A stretch of 20,000 bases of DNA, taken from an uncultured virus (IMG/VR IMGVR_UViG_3300033149_004321) (taxonomy: Duplodnaviria; Heunggongvirae; Uroviricota; Caudoviricetes). Numbering within the stretch: the first letter of the stretch is position 1; each line of letters opens with the position of its first letter. The stretch is from the IMG/VR virus record IMGVR_UViG_3300033149_004321; one strand, written 5' to 3'. Below the pieces are notes generated by a model that saw only the letters and a list, made by a program, of their open reading frames with translations, made no database searches and was not told the origin of the DNA. The translations under genes were made by a program, and so were the position numbers. Below, one piece after another: positions 1 to 13,250 of this stretch.

Positions 1-760
1 TTGTTTCAACAGCAAGATATACATCCGTTCTTTCACTTATTACTATGGGAAAGATAAACTCATTTCCTGATGTTGTATATTGTATTTTCTTTACCCATAT
101 AGAACGGTCAGTTTTATTATAAGGAATAATGTGTATGCCAAAACTTGCTATTACTGCCTGTGCAATTGAACATTCAAAATAAGCTAAATATAAAGTATAA
201 TTGTCTGGAACGGTATAAAATGCGTGATATGTCTGCCCATCATAAGCGTTAATCATACCAACGGTTGTATCTGCACCAAGATTTGTTATACGCAAATTGC
301 CTTTTAATGTATCAGCTCCAGAAGAATCTACCCAAGCCCTGTTCAATCTCAAAAATTCCTTTGCACTCTTCACTCTATTTGTACCATCCAAATCAAGTGT
401 ATCCCTTATTACATTATAATCAGCATCCAACCCTTCAAAAATTACTGTTCTTCCTCCAGTACCACCTTTATCGTCAGCCGCATTATTGGAACAAACCATC
501 AAAGATTCAGCAGCCGCCAAAGGATTATAAGTACCTGAACTATCCCAGATAACTTGATGTGCTGCCCCGGTTGAATTGCAAACCCCTATAATATTAACCG
601 CTTCTGCTCTTTTAATTATACCTTTGGCTATATTAAGATAATACGTTTGGGCAGATACTCTCAAATCACCATCCTCAAATTCTACTCTACTGTTCCACTG
701 GGCGAATAACGTAGTGGGAAAGAATATAAATAAAATTAAATAGTATAATAATTTTTTCAT
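1..760 (-). CDS. Putative virion-associated beta-rich protein with Sec signal peptide (runs off the left end; absent from the ORF track)
   Basis: Manual translation from ATG at 760: MKKLLYYLILFIFFPTTLFA|QWNSRVEFEDGD...IAKGII...VIWDSSGTY...AADDKGGTGGRTVIFEGLDADY...FLRLNR...FYTVPDNYTLYL...FPIVISERTDV; open to position 2 (at least 253 codons). The mature part resembles a recurrent phage structural-region family (recalled, not searched). Confidence 0.8.
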   Translation of the reverse strand, partial: MKKLLYYLILFIFFPTTLFAQWNSRVEFEDGDLRVSAQTYYLNIAKGIIKRAEAVNIIGVCNSTGAAHQVIWDSSGTYNPLAAAESLMVCSNNAADDKGGTGGRTVIFEGLDADYNVIRDTLDLDGTNRVKSAKEFLRLNRAWVDSSGADTLKGNLRITNLGADTTVGMINAYDGQTYHAFYTVPDNYTLYLAYFECSIAQAVIASFGIHIIPYNKTDRSIWVKKIQYTTSGNEFIFPIVISERTDVYLAVET

Positions 761-764
761 TTTT

Positions 765-1259
765 TTATCTCACATTGACTTCCAATGTATAGGGGATAGT
801 TCTCCCCTTATTTACGTTTAATGAATCTGTATTTCTTACTAAAAACAACATATGCTCTGCCGCTTCAGGATTAATTTTAAAATGATTATATAAATTATAA
901 TGCTTAACACTATCTTCAAGATTAATAGCAACTGCTCCAGAAGAATCTGGATGTGGAACTAACAAAGTATCCCAAAAAGCATACCCCCATTGTAAATTTA
1001 TTCTGGGTAATTTTCCTTCAGTGTAAGCGTTTCCCGATGTATCATATTTAAATTTTACTTCAACTACCCCAGTAAAAGATTGATTAGCTAAATTGATTCT
1101 TAAAGTATCAATATCGAGTTTATTCGTTCCACCGGCATCGACGCTATCAGGAGCAAGTAAAGTGCCTTGCATTGAAAATTTCACCATTCTTTGTGAATAA
1201 ATATCTGAAAACCAAAGGACAAAAAATGATATTAATATAAATATAAATAATTTTTTCAT
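765..1259 (-). CDS. Hypothetical exported protein (signal peptide)
   Basis: The ORF track starts at 1304, but the likelier start is ATG 1259 after AGGTG and a hairpin. MKKLFIFILISFFVLWFSDIYS|QR is a typical signal peptide. Confidence 0.75.
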   Translation of the reverse strand: MKKLFIFILISFFVLWFSDIYSQRMVKFSMQGTLLAPDSVDAGGTNKLDIDTLRINLANQSFTGVVEVKFKYDTSGNAYTEGKLPRINLQWGYAFWDTLLVPHPDSSGAVAINLEDSVKHYNLYNHFKINPEAAEHMLFLVRNTDSLNVNKGRTIPYTLEVNVR

Positions 1260-1277
1260 TGGACACCTAAAAAGATT

Positions 1278-1308
1278 TTCCCTGCGGACTATAAAAGCCC
1301 GCAAGGAA
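1278..1308 (-). terminator. Hairpin, possible intrinsic terminator
   Basis: Minus strand TTCCTTGCGGGCT-TTTAT-AGTCCGCAGGGAA (G-U pairs allowed), followed by AATCTTTTT, just after the 55-aa ORF. Confidence 0.55.
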
Positions 1309-1329
1309 TAATTAATTATTCTTCTTCAT

Positions 1330-1497
1330 TCAACTTAACTTTTTCTTTCTTCTTTCTTCTGATAATATAGAAGGCACGTCTTCAGCTCTTGCATTAAAAA
1401 CGCTACCTGGTTCTAACAGCATACTTTTACCGTTAACATTATACCTCAAAAATCTACCTGGCAACATCTTCATTCTAAAAACATTTTTAATAGCCAT
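1330..1497 (-). CDS. Small basic hypothetical protein, 55 aa (absent from the ORF track)
   Basis: GGAGGAG SD before ATG 1497; MAIKNVFRMKMLPGRFLRYNVNGKSMLLEPGSVFNARAEDVPSILSEERRKKKLS; TGA at 1330-1332. Confidence 0.7.
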   Translation of the reverse strand: MAIKNVFRMKMLPGRFLRYNVNGKSMLLEPGSVFNARAEDVPSILSEERRKKKLS

Positions 1498-1522
1498 TGG
1501 ACTCCTCCATAAGTTTAATTAA

Positions 1523-2449
1523 TTATTTTTCAGCCACTATTCTATACCAGTCTTCAAGTAAATACTGCCCGGCTGTAGTCCCTTCTCCCTTTTTTAATTC
1601 TCGGAAAGGCGTTAATTTTCCACCGATTGGTAAATTAGAAGTACCTGCAATACTGTCTATCAATACACCATTAGCATACCACCAAACGGCGCAATCGGTA
1701 CCTTCACCGTCAAAATGAAATCCTAATGTATTCCAGCCAAGATTCCCAGAAGCAGGTAATAAAATTAACGAATCAGTCAATTCAGTTGTCACAGCTAAAC
1801 CAAAAGCAGCCTCTAATTGATAAGCTGTATGTGTCCCCAAAGCAACTCTCCATTCACACCAAATTTCTTTTGTGCTGTCCATAACAATAGATGTGTTGTT
1901 TATATGAGAATTGTTAAGACCATCATCTTGGCTTGTTGTAAGTATTTTTAAAACCCCACCAGCACTATCTGGTAGCGTATATCCATTTTTACCTGTATCG
2001 GAAGAACAATACCATCCAGCTATTGATGAATCCCCGGGTCCTGCGGATATATCAGCACAAATCCAATCTTCAAATAACTCAAATACTTCTGATGCATTAT
2101 GCCAACCTATATTAGTTTTAATTTTATTATTCCACATACCTGTATTAGGACTTTCAATAACATTGGTACCATCAAAGTATAATTCATAATCATCGTCAGT
2201 TCCTAAAAGTATTCCATAATTATCAGCAAAGTTATAATTGGCAGACGCATCAGCTATAACTGTTCCTGATTGTATGTCAACAGTAGCGCCGGAATTTAAT
2301 TGTATTTCACCACCATCTTTAACCACCATTCTATCACCGCCCGTGTCAAAATAAATCTTTGTTATGTAATCAGATTGAGCAAATACAATTCCAACTACAA
2401 TCAAAGAAGCGGAAAGCAAAGTGGTTATTAATTTCCAATTCTTTTTCAT
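1523..2449 (-). CDS. Putative head fibre/decoration-like protein with Sec signal peptide and C-terminal beta-sandwich domain
   Basis: AGGAGG SD. MKKNWKLITTLLSASLIVVGIVFA|QSD. The following YITKIYFDTGGDRMVVKDGGEI resembles the N-terminus of small post-capsid head proteins. The C-terminal half is Gly/Thr/aromatic-rich and beta-like. Confidence 0.75.
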   Translation of the reverse strand: MKKNWKLITTLLSASLIVVGIVFAQSDYITKIYFDTGGDRMVVKDGGEIQLNSGATVDIQSGTVIADASANYNFADNYGILLGTDDDYELYFDGTNVIESPNTGMWNNKIKTNIGWHNASEVFELFEDWICADISAGPGDSSIAGWYCSSDTGKNGYTLPDSAGGVLKILTTSQDDGLNNSHINNTSIVMDSTKEIWCEWRVALGTHTAYQLEAAFGLAVTTELTDSLILLPASGNLGWNTLGFHFDGEGTDCAVWWYANGVLIDSIAGTSNLPIGGKLTPFRELKKGEGTTAGQYLLEDWYRIVAEK

Positions 2450-3023: not shown

Positions 3024-4220
3024 TTACGATGCCGCTACTCCTTTAATAATATAGAAATTCTTTGGTTCTCTGGGAGCGCCATCAGAACGCATAACCGCTC
3101 TGAAGTAAGTTTCGTTTCGTAAGAAACTATCACCAGCAACATCAGAAGCACTGATTTCAATTAATTCAGTTTTTTTCTGAAGAATAGCAAAATCACTCCA
3201 TTTTCCAAGAATTATATAAGAAAGACTTGTTCCAGTACCAGCCGTTAGATTTGTTACAATTTGGGTAGTAAAACCAACTTTATATCCCAAAATATCATCA
3301 GGTTCTTTCTTTGTCAAATCTCTTGCTAACTGCTGTCCCAGATGATAAATATATGAACCTTCTCCATTCTTCAATTGTCGCAAACTATTCTTTGTTCTCG
3401 GATGCATTATCCAACCATCACAAGTAGCATCATTAGCTTGTATAGCGTATTCAGCGTCCATCAGGTCATCAAAAGTAGGCACAGCCCCATTACCCGAACC
3501 AAGCGTAGTGCTTGATACAAGAGGGTTGTTGTAAATACCCAAAGGTTGTGTTCCACCTGTACCTTTTATGAACGCTAAATCTTCAGCAAGCGCAAGAACT
3601 TTTGCCAAATCGTCTTTTATAATCGTGTCCACCGCCGGTCCCGCATCCGCCAATAAATCATTTTTGACTTTTGTAACTCCCACACAATCTTTTAATACTA
3701 AATTGAGCATGGCAAATGCCTGGTCGGAAGCGGTAAAATCAGTTGTTCTTGCATCCTGTACCCAATAAGCGGTTGCTCCCCCCGTTGTTCTCGGTATTGA
3801 CATAGTGTTTCCATTCACTTCATAAACGGTAGCACCCATATCTCTTATGATAGCTTTCGCCCGAAGCAATTCAATGACTTCTGTTGAAACTTCTGGAGGA
3901 ATAAGAAACCCACCTTTAACACCAAGACCACCACGCATTGTTTTTATCACTTCTTCTTTATCCGAATTTATTCTTATAAAAGCTTGCTTTTCATAATCAG
4001 CATCTTCCCAGTTACCAGTAGTCGAACCACGCAAATACTTTGCTATTGAAAGGTACTGCTTTCCACCGGTGACAGGGGTTTCAATCCTATCGTTTTCTGT
4101 TGATCTTTCCCGTGCTTTCGTCAAAGGCTCAAGACTTTTCTTGATTTGCTCCTTGACAATTTTTTGCATTTCATCAAGGTCAATAGTTACTTTTTTCGTT
4201 TCTTTCTTTTTATCAGCCAT
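3024..4220 (-). CDS. Major capsid protein, HK97 fold
   Basis: GGFLIPPEVSTEVIELLR, IPRTTGGATAYWV, EDLAFIKGTGGTQPLGI, WIMHPRT...LKNGEGSYI, ILGYKV, ILGKWS motifs; N-terminal coiled delta-like region. Likely start ATG 4220 (track uses GTG 4229). Confidence 0.95.
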   Translation of the reverse strand: MADKKKETKKVTIDLDEMQKIVKEQIKKSLEPLTKARERSTENDRIETPVTGGKQYLSIAKYLRGSTTGNWEDADYEKQAFIRINSDKEEVIKTMRGGLGVKGGFLIPPEVSTEVIELLRAKAIIRDMGATVYEVNGNTMSIPRTTGGATAYWVQDARTTDFTASDQAFAMLNLVLKDCVGVTKVKNDLLADAGPAVDTIIKDDLAKVLALAEDLAFIKGTGGTQPLGIYNNPLVSSTTLGSGNGAVPTFDDLMDAEYAIQANDATCDGWIMHPRTKNSLRQLKNGEGSYIYHLGQQLARDLTKKEPDDILGYKVGFTTQIVTNLTAGTGTSLSYIILGKWSDFAILQKKTELIEISASDVAGDSFLRNETYFRAVMRSDGAPREPKNFYIIKGVAAS

Positions 4221-4255
4221 TATACACACCCCACTAAATTTTATATGTTAATAAC

Positions 4256-5068
4256 TTATTTTTCTAACACTTCTTTAATCCCGTCTTCCACGAGATTACC
4301 GATATTTTTAGCTAATTCTTCACCTGTCAATTCAGTTATCTCATTTTCATCGGGATTTTCCTCTTCACTTTCAACACCAGCTTCTTTCAGTTCTTCTTTG
4401 ACTATATCATCAGCCATCTTTTTTAGGTTTTCCCTAATGCTTTCCTCTGAATCTTCTGAAGCTTCTTCTTCATCGTCATTAGCCTCTTTGGTTTCCCCCG
4501 CACCCTCGGCGGATTTCTCCGCTTCTGTGTTTTTGCTTTCTTCTTCTTTTTCTTCTTGTTCTTTTAATAGTTCAGCAATAACATCAGTAGCTTTGGACAA
4601 TCCTTCACTCAATTGTTTTAACATATCAAGGGTCTTTTTTGAAAACCGAGCGCCAACTTTTTCAATGCCTTCAGCTTCATCTTTTTCTTTGTCATCTTCA
4701 CTTTCAATTTCCTTTTCTGAAAGAACGGTATCCGCAAGTTTGTTTATATAAATACCAATAGCATTTTGCAATTCTTTTGGCATATCGTTAGTGAACTGAT
4801 TTATCAAATCTGCCGCCTCTTCTGCTTTGTTCAATTCTTCAAAAACACCACTAACTTTTTCCAAATCTTCTTTCGACAAATCCCTCTGCGAAAGATTTCT
4901 GAACATATCGTTGATTTTACTCACTTTTAAATCCTCCATCTTATTTTCTTTTTTATTTCTTTTTATCAAATAGAATTTTTTTCTATTAGCAGGATTATCG
5001 ACAAAAGAAACTTCATCAACTTCTACATCCTCAAGTTTTCTTGGCTTCTTTCTGTTTTTTTCAAACAT
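4256..5068 (-). CDS. Acidic scaffold-like protein with N-terminal prohead-protease motif (EVSFVDNPAN)
   Basis: Directly upstream of the MCP; Glu/Lys-rich helical body; N-terminal LEDVEVDEVSFVDNPAN matches the EVSxVxxPAN segment of HK97/XkdF-type proteases; GAGGAGG SD. Confidence 0.8.
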   Translation of the reverse strand: MFEKNRKKPRKLEDVEVDEVSFVDNPANRKKFYLIKRNKKENKMEDLKVSKINDMFRNLSQRDLSKEDLEKVSGVFEELNKAEEAADLINQFTNDMPKELQNAIGIYINKLADTVLSEKEIESEDDKEKDEAEGIEKVGARFSKKTLDMLKQLSEGLSKATDVIAELLKEQEEKEEESKNTEAEKSAEGAGETKEANDDEEEASEDSEESIRENLKKMADDIVKEELKEAGVESEEENPDENEITELTGEELAKNIGNLVEDGIKEVLEK

Positions 5069-5280: not shown

Positions 5281-6798
5281 TTATTCCTGCCGAATTTTCG
5301 CACGTCCACCTATAGAGAAACCATTAATCTCCCCATCCTTAATTTTTTTCCATAATTCTTTTGCCAATATTTTAACTGCCATTACCCAACTTCCTTTTTT
5401 CACTTTCTCCCCACCAACATTATAATCAACAGGAGCAATAAAACTTTCAATAACCTTTGCAACTGTTTTTTCTTTATGCATTATCTTAAAATTTTGACTA
5501 TATAACATATAATCGTAGGCAGCTTTTCTCACTTCATCGGAATCCATTTCATCGCCTTGAGCATCAACTTCATTCGGAGAATAAACAACACCAGTTACAA
5601 TCTGTTCATCTTTATTAGTTTTTATAAAATCAACTTCTATATCTATATCATAATCTTCTCCAAACTCCATCTTTTCCAATTTATGTAATTCGGGTGGTTC
5701 TAGATCCAACTCTTTGTAGTGCCTTTTCAAATGTTCATAAACAGCTTTTCTATCTGCATCAGGAATTTTTGTACCTCCTCTTGCTCCAAGCAAAGCCCCC
5801 ATAGCCGCTATAACACCTCTGCGAACTGTTTTAATCTCCCCATCAATTACTTTATGATGAGGCAACTTATAAGAAGCTCTTATTTCAGGGTTTTCTGAAT
5901 CAAACCAGGCATGAACAGATTTATACTTTTCCCAATCTGGATTTTCTTCATCACCCAATATTTTATTTCCGTCCGCTGAAGAAAAACTCCACGCGACATC
6001 ATCAGCTAAAGGAAATTTCTTATACGGAACGGCACGTTTTTCTATTTCTTCACCTTCTTCTTTTCTCATTTTCTGTCCCGGTCCCGGTCTTTCAACTCTA
6101 CGCATTTCACCCCCGCATTCTGGACAATCTATCGACCTACAATGCTTATCCGTTTTTAATTTATACCCACAATCCAAACATTCACATTCATATTCAACTT
6201 TTTTAACAGCTGGTTCAAACAATATTGGTTCATAATCATGGTCTTTACACCACTTCTTTGCTTCTGCTACAGTAAAATCACTGCTATCAAATCTTATTGC
6301 TTGCAATTCACTCTTGCCTTCTTTGATTCCATATATAGCATGTATGCCTGTACCAAATGCATTATTCTTTCTGGCAAACCTTGTATATTTACCCGGAGAT
6401 GTTAATCTCGCTGAATGCTCGTTTGGATAAGGTTTCAATATATCAGTTTCATAAGATTCAATAGCTTCTTTCAGATTTGTTATTTCAGCTTTCAATAGTC
6501 TGTTGTCCATTATCAACTTATCATTATCAATTTGCTTTTTAATTTTTTCATCCAGCTTCCTATCGAGATTTTTATGTAATAATTTCAGTTCCCTTCTTTC
6601 CATTTCATTTTTAAGCATTCTAAATTTATCGAAAAAATTATCAATATAAATCTGCTCAAATATGTTTCTCAAAATATGCAACTTCTCACTGGAAAGTTTT
6701 TTCAAAACATCGGCATTTACTTCTTCAACTTTCGGCACAGATTTATTTGTATTTCTTTCAAAGCCCCTTTTATTCGATTTTACAAATTGTTTTCCCAT
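5281..6798 (-). CDS. Multidomain XkdF-like prohead serine protease (accessory N-terminal domains, Zn ribbon, C-terminal protease)
   Basis: C-terminal IVTGVVYSPNEVDAQGD...AAYDYM...MH...VIESFIAP...KKGSWVM...WKKIKDGEINGFSIGG matches XkdF-type proteases; CECLDC...HC...CPECGG Zn ribbon; two further discrete domains (PYPNEH...FEPA and AVPY...YKLPHH...HLKRHY). Confidence 0.9.
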   Translation of the reverse strand: MGKQFVKSNKRGFERNTNKSVPKVEEVNADVLKKLSSEKLHILRNIFEQIYIDNFFDKFRMLKNEMERRELKLLHKNLDRKLDEKIKKQIDNDKLIMDNRLLKAEITNLKEAIESYETDILKPYPNEHSARLTSPGKYTRFARKNNAFGTGIHAIYGIKEGKSELQAIRFDSSDFTVAEAKKWCKDHDYEPILFEPAVKKVEYECECLDCGYKLKTDKHCRSIDCPECGGEMRRVERPGPGQKMRKEEGEEIEKRAVPYKKFPLADDVAWSFSSADGNKILGDEENPDWEKYKSVHAWFDSENPEIRASYKLPHHKVIDGEIKTVRRGVIAAMGALLGARGGTKIPDADRKAVYEHLKRHYKELDLEPPELHKLEKMEFGEDYDIDIEVDFIKTNKDEQIVTGVVYSPNEVDAQGDEMDSDEVRKAAYDYMLYSQNFKIMHKEKTVAKVIESFIAPVDYNVGGEKVKKGSWVMAVKILAKELWKKIKDGEINGFSIGGRAKIRQE

Positions 6799-6830: not shown

Positions 6831-8216
6831 TTATGTTTTCTTTTTTCCTTTAGGCGGTGCTTGAAATTTAGGCTTGCCTGTAGGTTTTGTCAATGTATCC
6901 TTATCATAAACAGGTGTCCAATAGCACATACAATTGTGGACTAAAAATCCTTTTGCCACATAGCTTTCATCTTCTTCAACTGAAAGATTATACAAATCAA
7001 TTTCTTCTTCTATTTTATATCTTTTTATTGCTTTTATTTCATAAACTTTGAATCCATTATTAAAAGATAAACAAGATAACTCGCCCTTTAACTCTGCCTT
7101 ATCAGCTTCTTGCCATTTACCGTTCAGCATTATTTTATGATTAGCAGAAAGAGTCAATTCGTAATTAAATTTTTTATCTATAAATAAACTAACCATACTG
7201 GTATTTACATTTTTATATTTGTGTAATTGTATTACTTTTCTAAATCTACTTTTATGCGTATAAACTAAATCATTTACTTTTACATCTTCTATCTTCTTCC
7301 AACCTTTAATTGTATAAACAATAACTCCTGATTGGAAGCAATGAGGGTGTAAAGGTATTACCCCCCTTGCACTTTCCAAAGTATATTCCTGCATATTTAA
7401 AGCTTGGCAAATAGGGCAGGGTCGAACAGAATTTCTTAATTGAACTCTTTTAACTTTATTTGCTTTGTAACTTTGCAAAGTCCCTTCAGCATAAGCTCTT
7501 GCTGTTTCCGTTCTTGCTATCATTTCAGTTCTATATCTATGCAACTTATTTGTATATCTATCTATCATTTGTTCATATTTTTTTCCGCTGATTCCTTCAC
7601 TTATTAATTTATTTCCATAATTATCAACGGCTTTCCACTGTCTCGAATGCAACCCTACTCTCCCTTTGATTTCCCTGCCGAGTTGCGCGATGTCTTTTCC
7701 TTCTTTAATTCCTCTTGAGATATAAGTCCGCAAAGTTGATTTAGTATCATCAAGAATTTCCGTAACCAAATTAGCACAGCTTTTTTCAGCAAATTTAACC
7801 GCAGGGGTGTTCACAACTTCAAAACTCATTTTCAAATTACCAAATTGTATCATCTTATTTCCAGACCTTTGCATAAATCTTATTTCAGCTGGTAAAATTT
7901 CTTGCATACCCATTATTTTAATACATTCCCACCCCGCCAATTCAGCTACAATTTTTCCAGCACTTGCTTTTTCTAATTCTATAAATTTCTTATACGATTT
8001 TTTCTTGATTAATCTATTCAATCCATAAATTAAGGTTTCCCTCATTTCATTATACCAACCTGCAACTACTCTTTCAAATTCATCTACATCGGATTGTATC
8101 AGTCTTCTTAAAGTTTTTGCTTCTCTTTCAGCAATGCCTGATTTTTCAATAAACATCTGAACAGAATCATTAATGTTTAATTTGACATTTTCTATTTGTT
8201 CAACAATCGCTTCCAT
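6831..8216 (-). CDS. Phage minor head protein MuF/SPP1 gp7 family, intein-containing
   Basis: RTEMIARTETARAYAEG, PCPICQALN, IPLHPH[intein]CMC motifs. Likely start ATG 8216 after GGAG (track start 8240 overlaps the upstream gene). Confidence 0.92.
   Translation of the reverse strand: MEAIVEQIENVKLNINDSVQMFIEKSGIAEREAKTLRRLIQSDVDEFERVVAGWYNEMRETLIYGLNRLIKKKSYKKFIELEKASAGKIVAELAGWECIKIMGMQEILPAEIRFMQRSGNKMIQFGNLKMSFEVVNTPAVKFAEKSCANLVTEILDDTKSTLRTYISRGIKEGKDIAQLGREIKGRVGLHSRQWKAVDNYGNKLISEGISGKKYEQMIDRYTNKLHRYRTEMIARTETARAYAEGTLQSYKANKVKRVQLRNSVRPCPICQALNMQEYTLESARGVIPLHPHCFQSGVIVYTIKGWKKIEDVKVNDLVYTHKSRFRKVIQLHKYKNVNTSMVSLFIDKKFNYELTLSANHKIMLNGKWQEADKAELKGELSCLSFNNGFKVYEIKAIKRYKIEEEIDLYNLSVEEDESYVAKGFLVHNCMCYWTPVYDKDTLTKPTGKPKFQAPPKGKKKT
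6933..7340 (-). mobile_element. Mini-intein (136 aa, class 1, no endonuclease) in MuF
   Basis: Begins CFQSGVIVYTIKGWKKIEDV, block B SANH, ends YNLSVEEDESYVAKGFLVHN followed by Cys; removal restores HPHCMC. Confidence 0.92.
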
Positions 8217-8217
8217 G

Positions 8218-8493
8218 TTACTCCGTTTCCAGAATAGCAAATTTTTTGTAACTTCTCAAATGCCTTTCCAATCTATTTACTAATTCTAAAACTCTTTTTG
8301 GCAATTCTTCTTTTGGTATATAATCTAATTCATCAGCCAAACCCCTTGCAAAGAAAGTATATCCGTTTTCCACAAAGAATTTAGAATGAAGCTGATTATA
8401 TTTTTTTAGCCAGTTGAATAAAGATTTAATGTCTATTATTTTGTCAGCTACTTTTTGTTTTTTCCCGTCTATATTTTTTAATGTGAAAAGCAT
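8218..8493 (-). CDS. Hypothetical protein, 91 aa
   Basis: ORF tightly packed within the head operon; no recognised motif. Confidence 0.75.
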   Translation of the reverse strand: MLFTLKNIDGKKQKVADKIIDIKSLFNWLKKYNQLHSKFFVENGYTFFARGLADELDYIPKEELPKRVLELVNRLERHLRSYKKFAILETE

Positions 8494-8622: not shown

Positions 8623-9332
8623 AACGCAACCCTCTTATAATCTAAATCTAAAGTTGAACTTATTGTTTGTATTATTCTATGACTATGCTCTTGGAAAGTT
8701 AATGTTCCAGCATCTTCAGGTGATAAACCTTTTTCATCAATTAATCTCCAAAAATCCTTTTCAAATTTAGAATGAAGTGCCTTATTAGTATCATTATAAA
8801 TAGTCTCTAAACGATATGGTGTAGGCCAATATTTTTTTGGTTTCAATATGTATTCATATTTATCAGATATAACTCTTATTTCTTTTGCATTTATTTTATT
8901 TGCAAATATTATATCATCCATAGAAAAACTACAAGGATTAGGATGATTATGTATAAAAGTAGTTCCTTGTGCTTTCATTATGTCTGATTCAGTAAATTCA
9001 ACCTTATTAACTGTTCCTCTTGTTTCAAGCACAGTATTTCCAGCATCATCAATTGCTATACTATGTTCTAAACCATCTTCATGGTATTTTTTCATCAAAT
9101 CTTTTTCTGCGTTATTTATAGCTTCTTTTCTTCCAGGTTCTTTAATGGTTTTTTCATTAACAACTTTCCCTTTCTTCTTGCTTTCATCTATTATCTTTTT
9201 CGCTTTCGGAGAAATCACTCCACTCAAAGTAGTTCCTGGTACAGTGCAAGGATTAAATTTTCCTTTTATAATTTGAACCGTGTCGGAACAAATAATATTA
9301 ACATCTTCTATTATCTCTTTCAAATCCATCAT
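8619..9332 (-). CDS. JAB/MPN-like metal-binding domain protein (RadC/JAMM-type motif)
   Basis: Upstream Glu (LEHSIAID) plus FIHNHPNPCSFSMDD = E...HxH-x5-S-x2-D; ATGA-coupled to the portal gene. Confidence 0.75.
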   Translation of the reverse strand: MMDLKEIIEDVNIICSDTVQIIKGKFNPCTVPGTTLSGVISPKAKKIIDESKKKGKVVNEKTIKEPGRKEAINNAEKDLMKKYHEDGLEHSIAIDDAGNTVLETRGTVNKVEFTESDIMKAQGTTFIHNHPNPCSFSMDDIIFANKINAKEIRVISDKYEYILKPKKYWPTPYRLETIYNDTNKALHSKFEKDFWRLIDEKGLSPEDAGTLTFQEHSHRIIQTISSTLDLDYKRVAL

Positions 9333-10807
9333 TCCGCAATATTTATCTCCTCAATTTTATTTCCAAGTTTATTCAAAACTTTCTCTATTTTCTCCTGAAA
9401 ATTCTCAATCGCTTCTATCATAATTTCATCTCGTTTTTTCAAGGTTTCCTGCTCGCCTAAATATCTGCCTGGTTCTTTTATTTCTTTCCCTTCACCAGGT
9501 TCTCCTGGTTCTTTGCCTGGGACAACATTCCCACTTACACTGCCTACAGGAATCAAAGTCGATTTGACGAAGTGCGTATCTCCACCTACATATTTTTCAC
9601 CTATTTCCTGCTCTTCTATTACTTGATTAGGTGTCTTTGCACCAATCTCAACAGCTATTCTACTTCTGTTCATTTTTTCAGTCTTATCATCGCCAAGTAT
9701 ATCAGACAAATCAAATCGCAAATATAGCGTTTCACCTTCCTTTGCAAACTCGGGTAATAGAAAAGCATTAATGGCACTTTCTATTTTATGTAGTTTCGGT
9801 TTCATGGTATGCTTATAAAATGCTTTTACTTGCATTCGATAATTATCAAACGTCATATTTTTTGTAATACCCAATATAGCGTTGTTAGTACCAAGAACCG
9901 CAAGTTGTTCTTCTCTATTCCATTCTCTTTGCAATCTGAATTCCATATCTTTTGGGTCCGTGCCTATTGCCTGAAATTTTAAATTAAAAGGTAATACAAC
10001 CGTTCCATGTGCTTTTGAATATCCCAAAGCCCACTCGTCCCACCTCAATTTTACTCTTTTCGCTGATTCTTCACCCATTCCTCTATCAGTGTATAATACA
10101 CCTCTCGGTGTAGCGTAATTTTTGAAAAAGTTTTGATTATAATTAATAGCATACTCTTCACTTTTAATCGTTTCTACCAAAGGTTTTATCGAACCCATAC
10201 CATACCAATCATTGAGAGGGTCAAAGTATTTTATGTGAACTATATCATCAACATCAAATTCTATTTCTTTTCCGCCTTGTTTTATTCTAAAAACATAACC
10301 TTTAACCTTTTTATTCTCTCCATCAGAAATTACTTTCATTCTATCAGGTCTTATTACGTGTAATTCTGCTGTTCTGTTTCCAAGTTTATTTGGTACTTTC
10401 TCCCAGTAAGCATTTCCGTTTAATTCAGTATAAAGCAAAGTTGATTCAAATAAATCAAACCTACTCATTGTATCATTAGGTTTTTCTAAAAGTTTTATAA
10501 CCGGATGTGTCGGGTCGGTTATTTCCTTTTCTTTTCCATCTTTCCCCTTACTGATAAGTTTGTAAGGCAAATCCGCTCCTGCCGTTGCTATAGCAAATAT
10601 AGAAGCGTATACCCAAGGCATGTCTTTATATACACGTGAAAAACTTTCATAATTATCAGGTATAGCTACACCTTTTTGTCCTGTATATAATCCTTCCAGT
10701 AAAAGCGGCCAAGTCTTGGAAGCTTTTTCAAGCCATTCCTTCTCTTCTTCTGGACTCACATAATCCCTGTGTAAAATGTTCTTAAAAAATTCTACCGTTT
10801 TCGACAT
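9329..10807 (-). CDS. Portal protein, HK97 family
   Basis: PWVYASIFAIA, LLEKPN, LNGNAYWE, IRPDRM, DIVHIKYFDPLNDWYGMGSI, FFKNYATPRGVL, KDMEF, TPNQV motifs; follows terL. Confidence 0.95.
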   Translation of the reverse strand: MSKTVEFFKNILHRDYVSPEEEKEWLEKASKTWPLLLEGLYTGQKGVAIPDNYESFSRVYKDMPWVYASIFAIATAGADLPYKLISKGKDGKEKEITDPTHPVIKLLEKPNDTMSRFDLFESTLLYTELNGNAYWEKVPNKLGNRTAELHVIRPDRMKVISDGENKKVKGYVFRIKQGGKEIEFDVDDIVHIKYFDPLNDWYGMGSIKPLVETIKSEEYAINYNQNFFKNYATPRGVLYTDRGMGEESAKRVKLRWDEWALGYSKAHGTVVLPFNLKFQAIGTDPKDMEFRLQREWNREEQLAVLGTNNAILGITKNMTFDNYRMQVKAFYKHTMKPKLHKIESAINAFLLPEFAKEGETLYLRFDLSDILGDDKTEKMNRSRIAVEIGAKTPNQVIEEQEIGEKYVGGDTHFVKSTLIPVGSVSGNVVPGKEPGEPGEGKEIKEPGRYLGEQETLKKRDEIMIEAIENFQEKIEKVLNKLGNKIEEINIAE

Positions 10808-10820
10808 ATCTATTCCTTTC

Positions 10821-13250
10821 TTATATTAAATAAATATCTACGTCATCACCAAAACCAGGGTCAGCGAAAGCCATTACAATAGCATCCGTTTCATCTGGCG
10901 ACCTTTGTCCTCGACTTTTCATGTCCTGTTTTGATTCTATTTGTATTTTCTTTTCACGTGATATTTTATATTTTATACCAGACATTTGTGAAATAAGTTC
11001 AGGATCGTTTGGTATATCTACCTTCCCTTCTTCAAGTTTCTTTTCCCCAGCAATGAATTCCCTAACATCAATTTTTAACTGTTTTAATCTGTCATAAACA
11101 CCGCTACCAACTCCGACCGTATCAACTAAAGTGATAACTCCCGTCTCATTTTCAAAACTATCTTCCTTTTTCTCATCTTCTTTTTTTTCTCTTGCTTCAT
11201 TATATTCAGATATTTCTTCTTCAACTATCTTACCCGTTTCTTCAACCGTTTCCATAGTGTCTAATTTCGTGTCCTTGAATCTTATTCTTACTTTATTCCC
11301 TTTCCGAACTGCTACCACAATTTTATCACCGCCATACCTTGCAGGGTCAATATCACTGTTATCTGGTTCTGTTTCTCTTTCAGCCGCCTGCTTTACAAGA
11401 TGATATGGAAATACAAAATTACCAGCCTGTGAAAAAACCCACAATCCTTCAACATACTTTTTGACAAGTTCGGGGGGTAAACCCTTTCTCAATCTCTGCT
11501 CGTAATCCTTTGGCAAATAAGGATTATCCTTTATCCTTGAAGGAATAAATCTATAATCTGGGTCCGGGTTCTCCACAAACGTATCGTGTACCCAACCTAT
11601 TTCTGGGTTGCTTGTACACAACCCTTTATAAATGGGTCTTGTTCCATTCGGTAAAAGTATTCTCAATCTTGTTAGCAATAGTTCAAAATATTCCTTTGTA
11701 GTTTCTGAAGCTTCATCAATACCAAACCACCCAAGCGTCATTGACTTAATCCTATCAACTGGTTTGTCTGTTTGTGTGGGTTTCAATCCTCCGTAATATA
11801 TAGCCGAACCATTTATAAATTTAATAACCTGTTCACTCTTATTATGTTGCTTCACCGTTTTATCCCAAAGCCTACGAATGAGAACCTCCTCCAATAAAGT
11901 AAGTAAAGTCGTTTTTTTGAAAGTCGTATTTTCATGTCTGCAAAGATAACCCCTGTTTCCGGGAAAGATTAAACTCAATAAGACTGCATACCAACAAAGC
12001 CAAATGCTATTATGAGTTACTATAAAATCATCTGTTATATATAAACCATTTGGATTATCAACAGTAATACATTGTGCTTCTTCTTTTCCAACGTATTCAA
12101 CATCTATAATTCTTCTTGACAATTCAGAAACCCCACCATTAAAACCATTATTCATTCTTTCTCTTTTCCTTGAAAGAAAAACAAGCTGGTCATTTATTTT
12201 CGTATTAAAATAAATCGTATATGCCTTCTGTCCATTAAATTTCACATCCTTATAAACATAAGTAGGTATTTTATCCGTTATTGTAGCTTTCCCCCCTAAA
12301 GAATGAATAACAAATTGAAAATCTTTTGCTAACTTTTTGCTAACTGTCATATATGACATATGACCCCTATCATCCACATAACCATCCGAATCCATAAGTC
12401 CTTGAATCAATTCTATTCTTTCTTCAATAGTCCCCCATTTATAATATTTAGGAATAAACTTATTATTTGCTATGCAACCAAATATACCTAATTTTTCCAA
12501 TTTATTTTTCAAAATTTTATTTTTATCTTCTATATACCAAGATTTTTTATTTTTACCACATTTTACCTTATACCCATATTCTTTCAATCTTTTACTTATT
12601 TCAATATCAAGTGATGTATAACTGATAAAATTGCTCTTATTAGTTAAACTACCATCACCAATTAAAATACCCAATAAATATGGTTCAACTGTTCTTGGAT
12701 TAACTGAATATGACTTTGTAAACCTTAATGGTTTACATAAAGGAATAAGTAAATTAACTCCTTTAATATAAGCTTTCTTATCTGCTTTTTCTTTATTTCG
12801 CAAAAATTCTATAATTTGTTGTGTTGTCCAAATCCTGCTTTCGCCTTGACAAAAATCAGTATCAACCAAATAATTCCAATCTTTTCTCTTTGTTTTATGT
12901 GGCATTGTCTTTTTAATAAGCCATAAGTGTTCAAGACCAACTTTAGTTGAAGCTCCATCTGCAAAGGTAATTCGATATAAATCTTTAACTCCTTGTGGAT
13001 GAACAGCAATAACTTTTTGTGGGGAACCATTAGGATTAAGAATGTTATCCCCTACTTTTATATCCCCCATTTTTCTTGTACCATAAGGCGTATATACAAT
13101 AGAATCAAGGGACTGTAGCTTCCCCCCGCCGACGGCGCCTCCAAATAATATATAGAGTTCTTCTGCTGAAACCGCCATCCTTTGTTGCTTATGCAATTCA
13201 GGCATCAATACATCTATTGATTCAATTTTCTTTTTTCTTGCTTTTGCCAC
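10821..13250 (-). CDS. terL: Terminase large subunit, intein-containing (about 439 aa after splicing)
   Basis: Walker A GGAVGGGK[intein]S, Walker B FGIDEA, coupling motif TSNP, DNPYL, nuclease DPARYGGD, VDTVGVG and RSPDETDA; SD AGGTGA before GTG. Confidence 0.95.
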   Translation of the reverse strand: MAKARKKKIESIDVLMPELHKQQRMAVSAEELYILFGGAVGGGKLQSLDSIVYTPYGTRKMGDIKVGDNILNPNGSPQKVIAVHPQGVKDLYRITFADGASTKVGLEHLWLIKKTMPHKTKRKDWNYLVDTDFCQGESRIWTTQQIIEFLRNKEKADKKAYIKGVNLLIPLCKPLRFTKSYSVNPRTVEPYLLGILIGDGSLTNKSNFISYTSLDIEISKRLKEYGYKVKCGKNKKSWYIEDKNKILKNKLEKLGIFGCIANNKFIPKYYKWGTIEERIELIQGLMDSDGYVDDRGHMSYMTVSKKLAKDFQFVIHSLGGKATITDKIPTYVYKDVKFNGQKAYTIYFNTKINDQLVFLSRKRERMNNGFNGGVSELSRRIIDVEYVGKEEAQCITVDNPNGLYITDDFIVTHNSIWLCWYAVLLSLIFPGNRGYLCRHENTTFKKTTLLTLLEEVLIRRLWDKTVKQHNKSEQVIKFINGSAIYYGGLKPTQTDKPVDRIKSMTLGWFGIDEASETTKEYFELLLTRLRILLPNGTRPIYKGLCTSNPEIGWVHDTFVENPDPDYRFIPSRIKDNPYLPKDYEQRLRKGLPPELVKKYVEGLWVFSQAGNFVFPYHLVKQAAERETEPDNSDIDPARYGGDKIVVAVRKGNKVRIRFKDTKLDTMETVEETGKIVEEEISEYNEAREKKEDEKKEDSFENETGVITLVDTVGVGSGVYDRLKQLKIDVREFIAGEKKLEEGKVDIPNDPELISQMSGIKYKISREKKIQIESKQDMKSRGQRSPDETDAIVMAFADPGFGDDVDIYLI
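12009..13118 (-). mobile_element. Class-3-type intein (370 aa) with LAGLIDADG homing endonuclease, inserted in the terL Walker A
   Basis: Starts LQSLDSIVYTPYG; EHLW in block B; LLGILIGDG and IQGLMDSDG endonuclease motifs; AQCITVD in block F; ends FIVTHN followed by Ser. Confidence 0.92.

Follow-up and report, generated by a model that had tools for sequence, protein, structure and literature searches.

Predicted Sec leaders on late proteins of an uncultured tailed phage, and their possible role as exported virion appendages

The late region and its leader genes

The window analysed here is the whole 20,000-nucleotide (nt) stretch of DNA from an uncultured virus, IMG/VR record IMGVR_UViG_3300033149_004321, assigned to the Caudoviricetes. 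It represents a tailed-phage late region that is read from the minus strand, and after the coat gene and a small immunoglobulin-like (Ig-like) gene it encodes three larger proteins, called leader proteins 1, 2 and 3 here, which each start with what looks like a Sec signal peptide. The three open reading frames (ORFs) are real genes of a siphovirus-like phage and would be expressed late. The interpretation we favour, at a probability of roughly 45%, is that the leader proteins of this phage are exported glycan-binding appendages which join the particle at lysis as peripheral virion parts.

The same phage is present in two other virus records, one of 34.7 kilobases (kb; G001) and one of 47 kb (G002). 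Past the end of the window these continue with a head-tail adaptor, a neck protein, a tail-tube-like Ig protein, chaperones and a tape measure protein of 961 amino acids (aa), and further on with two tail-tip proteins that have no family and a lysis block containing an intein-bearing NlpC/P60 endolysin. The features of the late region, and three leader genes outside the window, are collected in Table 1. The short ORF between leader genes 1 and 2 has a GGAGG site upstream, and shows no leader and no family match in Pfam and phrog searches. The inverted repeat ahead of leader gene 1 was read straight from the sequence and is absent from the terminator-scan list.

Table 1. Genes and signals of the late region in gene order, with leader genes elsewhere in the phage (positions are those of the window unless a record is named)
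Feature	Position	Strand	Details
Small-terminase-like gene		minus	first in late-region order
Large terminase	10821-13250	minus	809 aa
Portal	9329-10807	minus
Minor head protein	6831-8240	minus
XkdF-type protease fusion	5281-6798	minus
Acidic scaffold-like protein	4256-5068	minus
HK97-type major capsid protein	3024-4229	minus	Pfam Phage_capsid E 1.1e-54; phrog_10 E 1.2e-48
Leaderless Ig-like protein, phrog_5707	2552-2956	minus	134 aa; phrog_5707 E 2.7e-9; weak Big_7 match
GC-rich inverted repeat, then T-rich stretch	2491-2516	minus	7-bp arms; between 134-aa gene and leader gene 1
Leader protein 1	1523-2449	minus	308 aa in window, 339 aa in record G001; leader residues 1-24 (2378-2449), ends V-F-A, then Q; motif residues ~28-66 (2252-2368)
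Small ORF between leader genes 1 and 2	1330-1497	minus	55 aa; 68 aa in G001
Terminator-like hairpin	1278-1308	minus	13 pairs + T-rich tail; directly upstream of leader gene 2
Leader protein 2	765-1259	minus	164 aa; leader residues 1-22 (1194-1259), ends I-Y-S, then Q
Leader protein 3	2-760	minus	253 of 271 aa inside window, whose end cuts the ORF; leader residues 1-20 (701-760), ends L-F-A, then Q
LamG leader protein	outside window, after tail genes		394 aa; Pfam Laminin_G_3 E 3.9e-27
CBM96-like leader protein	outside window		691 aa; near CBM96/DNRLRE secreted bacterial proteins, Atlas language-model search score 0.92
Lysis-block leader protein	L112 13869-14309 (G002)	minus	146 aa; no family matched

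Leader anatomy, start codons and the host

The three N-termini are built to one plan. Each starts with M-K-K, which gives a positive tip with acidic residues absent from the first residues, and runs through an uncharged hydrophobic core (best 10-residue hydropathy 2.88, 3.29 and 2.72 in proteins 1, 2 and 3) to a small residue followed by Gln. The first-pass annotation, made from the letters of the window, had described this arrangement in the ORFs starting at 2449, 1259 and 760 and had taken it for Sec signals with Gln at +1. The arrangement is confirmed, and by rule-based criteria, on which the predictions of cleavage rest throughout, the leaders look like genuine signals for Sec and signal peptidase I. 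The sites fit signal peptidase I, so export, as a prediction, is the well-supported part of the picture.

The leaders were compared with chance by a heuristic requiring a positive tip, at least 10 uncharged residues with a mean hydropathy of at least 2.0, allowed residues at -3 and -1, and Q at +1. Eight of 327 ATG-started ORF candidates from the two records of the phage pass: the six long leader proteins along with a 165-aa membrane protein and a nested start. Dropping the Q requirement adds just two. In 20 shuffled versions of the record, 1 of 287 ORFs satisfied the full heuristic, and 14 of 287 satisfied it once Q was no longer required. The phage encodes at least six long leader proteins besides the 165-aa membrane protein, and every one has Gln at +1, an allowed residue at -3 and a small residue at -1. 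The leader protein of the lysis block ends in Phe, like a small outer-membrane beta-barrel, and may replace a spanin. No Por_Secre_tail-type match was found in Pfam (leader proteins 1-5) or NCBIfam (six leader proteins), and the idea that these proteins are cargo of type IX secretion was rejected because the C-terminal sorting domain was not found.

In the protein collection, where genes were called independently, all three proteins likewise begin at the MKK starts. The ORF list places protein 2 at 765-1304, from an upstream TTG; its MKK start is the ATG at 1259, with AGGTG 4 nt upstream. A strong ribosome site, TAGGAGGT, lies 8-9 nt ahead of the protein 1 ATG at 2449, and the ATG of protein 3 at 760 lies 5 nt after the previous stop with no clear ribosome site. 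Protein 1 has no ATG or GTG from codon 2 up to its conserved motif, and therefore no leaderless isoform is possible.

These starts bear on the suggestion that the hydrophobic N-termini are not export signals at all, and are instead uncleaved anchors, assembly handles, or residues ahead of true starts that lie downstream, with assembly remaining cytoplasmic. Protein 2 does have an in-frame ATG at codon 25, straight after the predicted cut and without a ribosome site, and some relatives of protein 1 have long Gly/Ala-rich leaders with no obvious cut site, both of which would suit this suggestion. We nevertheless consider it improbable, given the strong ribosome site at the MKK start of protein 1 with no alternative start before the motif, the allowed -3 residue, small -1 residue and Q found in all leaders, and the lipoprotein-box variants described below, which show that export machinery reads the N-terminus of the family. 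A positive tip followed by a hydrophobic core is in any case predicted to place the protein body beyond the inner membrane, cut or uncut.

Gln at +1 had also been read at first as a mark of hosts in the Fibrobacteres-Chlorobi-Bacteroidetes (FCB) group. This stands in part: Q in every leader of the phage fits the Q-rule, but leader-bearing members of the protein 1 family also occur in guanine-plus-cytosine-rich (GC-rich) phages, with other residues at +1 and with lipoprotein boxes. The Q-rule paper describes the rule for Bacteroidetes (mean 71%), finds it absent from most Chlorobi, states that the FCB group is not wholly covered, and puts Ignavibacterium album at 77%. A Shine-Dalgarno-like core stands before 18 of 36 genes of the phage (background 0.10), compared with 0 of 18 genes in the Cellulophaga phage phi10:1 and 1 of 17 in a second Cellulophaga phage, which argues against a classical Bacteroidota host. 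The host is probably not a classical Bacteroidota, judging from these sites, and may belong to a lineage of the Q-rule group which uses Shine-Dalgarno sites, such as Ignavibacteriota. The GC content of the phage is about 32%, and its portal and coat proteins match distant phages only, at 26-33% identity.

Relatives and folds of the leader proteins

On sequence and gene order, protein 1 is the positional orthologue of a conserved, fibre-like head-module gene with an exchangeable tip. Its N-terminal motif matches phrog_12102 on residues 27-63 (E 3.1e-5), and 12 columns are invariant in an alignment of eight sequences. A HMMER search of 1.84 billion representatives returned 188 relatives of protein 1, which form two groups, one sharing the motif and the other the C-terminal domain. 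Scans of viral contigs, metagenomes and species genomes with leader-free motif patterns found 40 loci, corresponding to 33 distinct proteins. In 23 of these the protein is leaderless and starts 1-5 residues ahead of the conserved Tyr; in the other 10, with L124/L125 counted as leader-bearing, a hydrophobic leader of the Sec or lipoprotein kind lies directly ahead of the motif. In protein 1 itself the 24-residue leader precedes the motif, and the predicted cut would leave it 3 residues from the new N-terminus, close to its place in the leaderless relatives. From the leaderless starts and the placement of the leaders together, the motif would be kept at the predicted mature N-terminus. The C-terminal parts of the family are highly variable, running from 93 to more than 900 aa, and many are fibre-like in look.

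Lipoprotein boxes occur in two of the 10 leader-bearing distinct members (L119 and L127) and in at least three more proteins among the library matches. In the 1.84-billion-protein library, 29 of 31 fetched motif matches have a leader; this share is inflated, since the query contained the leader, and the leader-free queries give the 10 of 33 above. Across 185,579 species genomes the motif pattern was found in just three loci. None of the three has a leader, and a link between leaders and host phyla could therefore not be drawn. The leader-bearing motif loci range from 45 to 68% GC, the GC-rich ones having other +1 residues and lipoprotein boxes, and the leader is thus not confined to Q-rule hosts. 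In one such GC-rich phage a second protein, two genes downstream of the leader-bearing motif protein, starts with a membrane helix (L092 6162-6674).

The gene order in which a coat gene (phrog_10) is followed by a phrog_5707 gene and then the motif protein is found in the window and in related leaderless loci, and is identical in the leader-bearing loci L116, L122, L125, L128 and L129. The middle gene of the related loci encodes 140-155 aa and often matches phrog_5707. Leaderless phrog_12102 proteins, for example gene 35 of Azospirillum phage Cd, have the same motif in the same place after the coat and phrog_5707 genes; they differ from protein 1 in starting 1-5 residues before the motif, and are annotated as hypothetical.

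From about residue 115 to its end, protein 1 has a concanavalin-A-like lectin/glucanase fold by structure modelling. The AlphaFold model has a confidence score (pLDDT) of 78.8, with the domain mostly above 85. The best Foldseek match is SO2946 of Shewanella oneidensis (PDB 2a5z; E 5.8e-10, template-modelling (TM) score by target 0.62), followed by GH16 glucanases and legume lectins, with at least 500 matches at E <=0.001. SO2946, which we presume to lie within a prophage, is titled a protein of unknown function in the PDB. Its family differs from protein 1 at the level of sequence: the protein 1 sequence matches none of the Pfam families and does not reach the cut-off of SO2946-like_C (PF22237). 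The relatives P0010, P0012 and P0013 do match PF22237, and the latter two pass its cut-off. Leaders are found in 14 of 111 lectin-domain relatives, seven of the 14 having Gln after a small residue, and some lectin-domain relatives are fused to the head-decoration family phrog_1731.

Protein 3 matches phrog_8198 (E 2.7e-28) and 38 phage records, mostly T4-like cyanophages, with S-SCSM1 and S-SKS1 at tblastn E values of 1e-16 to 5e-19. Its relatives in viral contigs comprise 468 confirmed stretches, of which the best 80 were scored; 79 of these are complete, and the family is leaderless in all 79. Exceptions outside these loci are one metagenomic protein whose leader ends V-S-A and is followed by Gln, and a protein of a spindle-shaped archaeal virus with an N-terminal membrane helix. 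[quoted passage not shown] The model of protein 3 (pLDDT 85.2) is all-beta with a jelly-roll-type fold. It matches uncharacterised tailed-phage proteins in BFVD at TM 0.75-0.87, and in VIA-align it reaches Z 9-10 with viral turret and cement jelly rolls, a generic level near the usual background. Against solved structures, Foldseek gave weak, low-TM matches only, and a profile search gave none.

Protein 2 found no relative but itself in sequence searches of 5.8 billion proteins and of phage records. Its Atlas model, of low confidence (pLDDT 0.55), reaches TM 0.71 with a viral cluster in which 23% of members have Bbp16. The mature part is an orphan and possibly a small jelly roll, a lead from the model that is too weak to name a family.

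Two earlier expectations can be settled against these relatives. The mature parts of the proteins starting at 2449 and 760 had been taken for phage rather than host families, and so they are, with their phrog_12102 and phrog_8198 matches and their viral relatives. It had also been proposed to see whether homologues elsewhere lack the leader. In viral contigs they mostly do, with 13 of 15 motif homologues and all 79 complete protein 3 loci leaderless, but the GC-rich phages with leaders depart from this.

The same relatives make it very unlikely, in our judgement, that the leader genes are host-derived secreted morons which were inserted in the late operon and have nothing to do with the particle. 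The gene order around protein 1 is conserved among phages, the motif of the protein is common to many phage loci and nearly absent from the species genomes (three loci), and protein 3 has its relatives in the 38 phage records and 468 viral stretches. A moron origin would draw on the hairpins ahead of leader genes 1 and 2, on the orphan state of protein 2, and on the frequent occurrence of concanavalin-A-like, LamG and CBM96 folds among secreted bacterial proteins.

Virion appendages or envelope effectors

Under the favoured interpretation, the leader proteins would be synthesised as Sec pre-proteins and, once signal peptidase I had cut them ahead of Gln, would mature in the periplasm, where the Gln at +1 may form pyroglutamate. 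Proteins 1 and 3, the LamG protein, the CBM96-like protein and others with a leader would make up a set of glycan-binding beta-sandwich proteins. In protein 1 the N-terminal motif would act as an attachment or oligomerisation element, and the concanavalin-A-like lectin would form the tip. In lambda lysis, the action of holin and endolysin joins cytoplasm and periplasm while the outer membrane is still intact. At a corresponding step, the particle built in the cytoplasm could meet the exported proteins once holin and endolysin have merged the two compartments.

The case for a virion role, tentative as it is, is built from the sequence comparisons: the predicted mature end retains the motif, the gene has not moved from its place in the head module, and neither G001 nor the 20 kb of G002 that was searched contains a leaderless paralogue of proteins 1-3. 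To these is added a cultured parallel, Cellulophaga phage phi10:1 (GenBank KC821618), in which gp091-gp094 are annotated as structural from experimental tandem mass spectrometry (MS/MS). All four start with a positive tip, a hydrophobic core and a small residue, then Q. They too are late genes of a tailed phage adjoining structural genes, and the pectate lyase next door also has such a leader. They differ from the window genes in following the tail genes and not lying in the head module, and the host of phi10:1 is a flavobacterium.

The other possibility to be weighed is that the exported proteins never join the particle, and act in the host envelope late in infection with recruited structural folds. 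They might bind or mask surface glycans or receptors, which would keep progeny from being lost on debris and shut out rival phages, or they might assist escape through a capsule. We hold this to be somewhat unlikely. Exported, envelope-acting proteins of tailed phages include the signal-arrest-release (SAR) endolysins, T5 Llp, T4 Spackle, P1 Sim, and lambda Bor and Lom. SAR endolysins, Llp and Spackle resemble the leader proteins in being phage-encoded, having Sec-dependent N-terminal signals and acting outside the cytoplasm; they differ in that they are not orthologues of virion-module proteins and do not have glycan-binding fibre or decoration folds. Matrishin et al. 2023 (PMC10367356) describe Q-rule leaders on five Porphyromonas gingivalis phage genes of unknown function, and the authors see in them an adaptation to host export and possible outer-membrane modifiers, much as an envelope role would have it. 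Those genes share with the window genes the Sec leaders cut before Gln; in the portion of that paper available they are not tied to virion protein families, and their position is not described. An envelope role would also agree with the lipoprotein-box variants of the motif family, with the resemblance of the 691-aa leader protein to CBM96/DNRLRE secreted bacterial proteins, and with the hairpins that flank leader genes which look dispensable in the window strain. It fits less well with the protein 1 family, whose sole conserved part is the head-module motif, intact in the exported forms and with the gene order kept, nor does it account for the lack of a leaderless copy to serve the particle in the genome parts examined, or for the leaders on the MS/MS-annotated structural proteins of phi10:1.

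The dispensability comes from a comparison of the window with G001. The window has a 93-base-pair (bp) in-frame deletion in the lectin core of protein 1 (31 aa lost), a 25-bp deletion in the small ORF at 1330-1497 which alters its C-terminus, and at ~18753 a loss of 44 bp that removes the start codon and half the leader of the 165-aa membrane protein, which is TM2-like. There are 13 substitutions, one at 329 and the rest between 1419 and 1676. The deletions of the leader region fall at 1355-1790, and in the first 3000 bases, which were compared, the two are identical from 1791 on. By these positions the changes cluster in and around the genes of the predicted exported proteins.

Several observations weigh against docking on the particle. 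The deletions in leader gene 1 and in the 165-aa gene suggest that these genes are dispensable or decaying in this strain, and the hairpins ahead of leader genes 1 and 2 are of the kind seen around inserted cargo genes. The motif of protein 1 folds at low confidence as a monomer in the AlphaFold model. The lipoprotein-box forms should stay membrane-anchored, which is easier to reconcile with an envelope role than with free docking. To our knowledge, the envelope is the site of action of every exported tailed-phage protein that has been studied well. The phi10:1 proteins have no detectable sequence similarity to the window proteins, and detection in a purified phage preparation is no proof of incorporation into the particle. 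There is also no hint that export serves disulfide formation: Cys content is alike in leader-bearing and leaderless lectin relatives (0.87 and 0.95 per 100 aa, p 0.76), and this idea was rejected.

Carried beyond this phage, the favoured interpretation suggests, at a strength below that given for the phage itself, that in several bacterial lineages the outermost, glycan-binding parts of tailed phages pass through Sec and are docked at lysis. The parts so routed would be head fibres, decoration-like jelly rolls and tail-fibre lectins, and the head-module motif family might, with the same reserve, be the most widespread marker. Structural modules with more than one leader protein may likewise be frequent in phages of hosts that do not follow the Q-rule. 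Tailed-phage assembly is by textbook account wholly cytoplasmic, and docking at lysis, if true, would amount to a two-compartment assembly line, which is not described for Caudoviricetes. If peripheral adhesins are exported first, what the particle contains would hinge on host secretion and on the sequence of lysis events. Exported virion proteins could then bear periplasmic modifications such as pyroglutamate, and annotation pipelines which count a signal peptide against a virion role would mislabel host-recognition proteins. If the proteins act in the envelope instead, phages would have co-opted structural folds for late effectors that are exported, a role that matters for superinfection exclusion and progeny release in poorly studied hosts. 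New here are the tally of leaderless, Sec and lipoprotein forms of the motif family within one conserved gene order, and the finding that such leaders extend beyond Q-rule hosts, together with a probable host which uses Shine-Dalgarno sites. A full-text literature search turned up no account of virion parts being exported in tailed phages; the study behind the phi10:1 annotation may already describe it.

Some further features of the phage were noted. The large terminase is of unusual length; it matches terminase families over two separate stretches (22-416 and 429-630) and, less strongly, helicase-loader and primase families. The NlpC/P60 endolysin of the lysis block (L112 12322-13869 in G002, minus strand) contains an intein with a LAGLIDADG domain (Pfam Intein_splicing E 1.3e-15), and a 933-aa helicase-like ORF in G002 also seems to be split by an inserted element. 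Between the head-tail adaptor and the neck gene lie two neighbouring paralogues of no known family (L003 7926-9056 and 9202-9726 in G001, minus strand; 29% identity over 171 aa). The 334-aa tail-tip protein (L003 365-1369) and a 142-aa protein (L112 18518-18946) have a common C-terminal domain (50% identity over 117 aa), the copy in the tail-tip protein giving a weak match to Pfam Phage_cement_2, and the two copies flank the LamG leader gene, one on each side.

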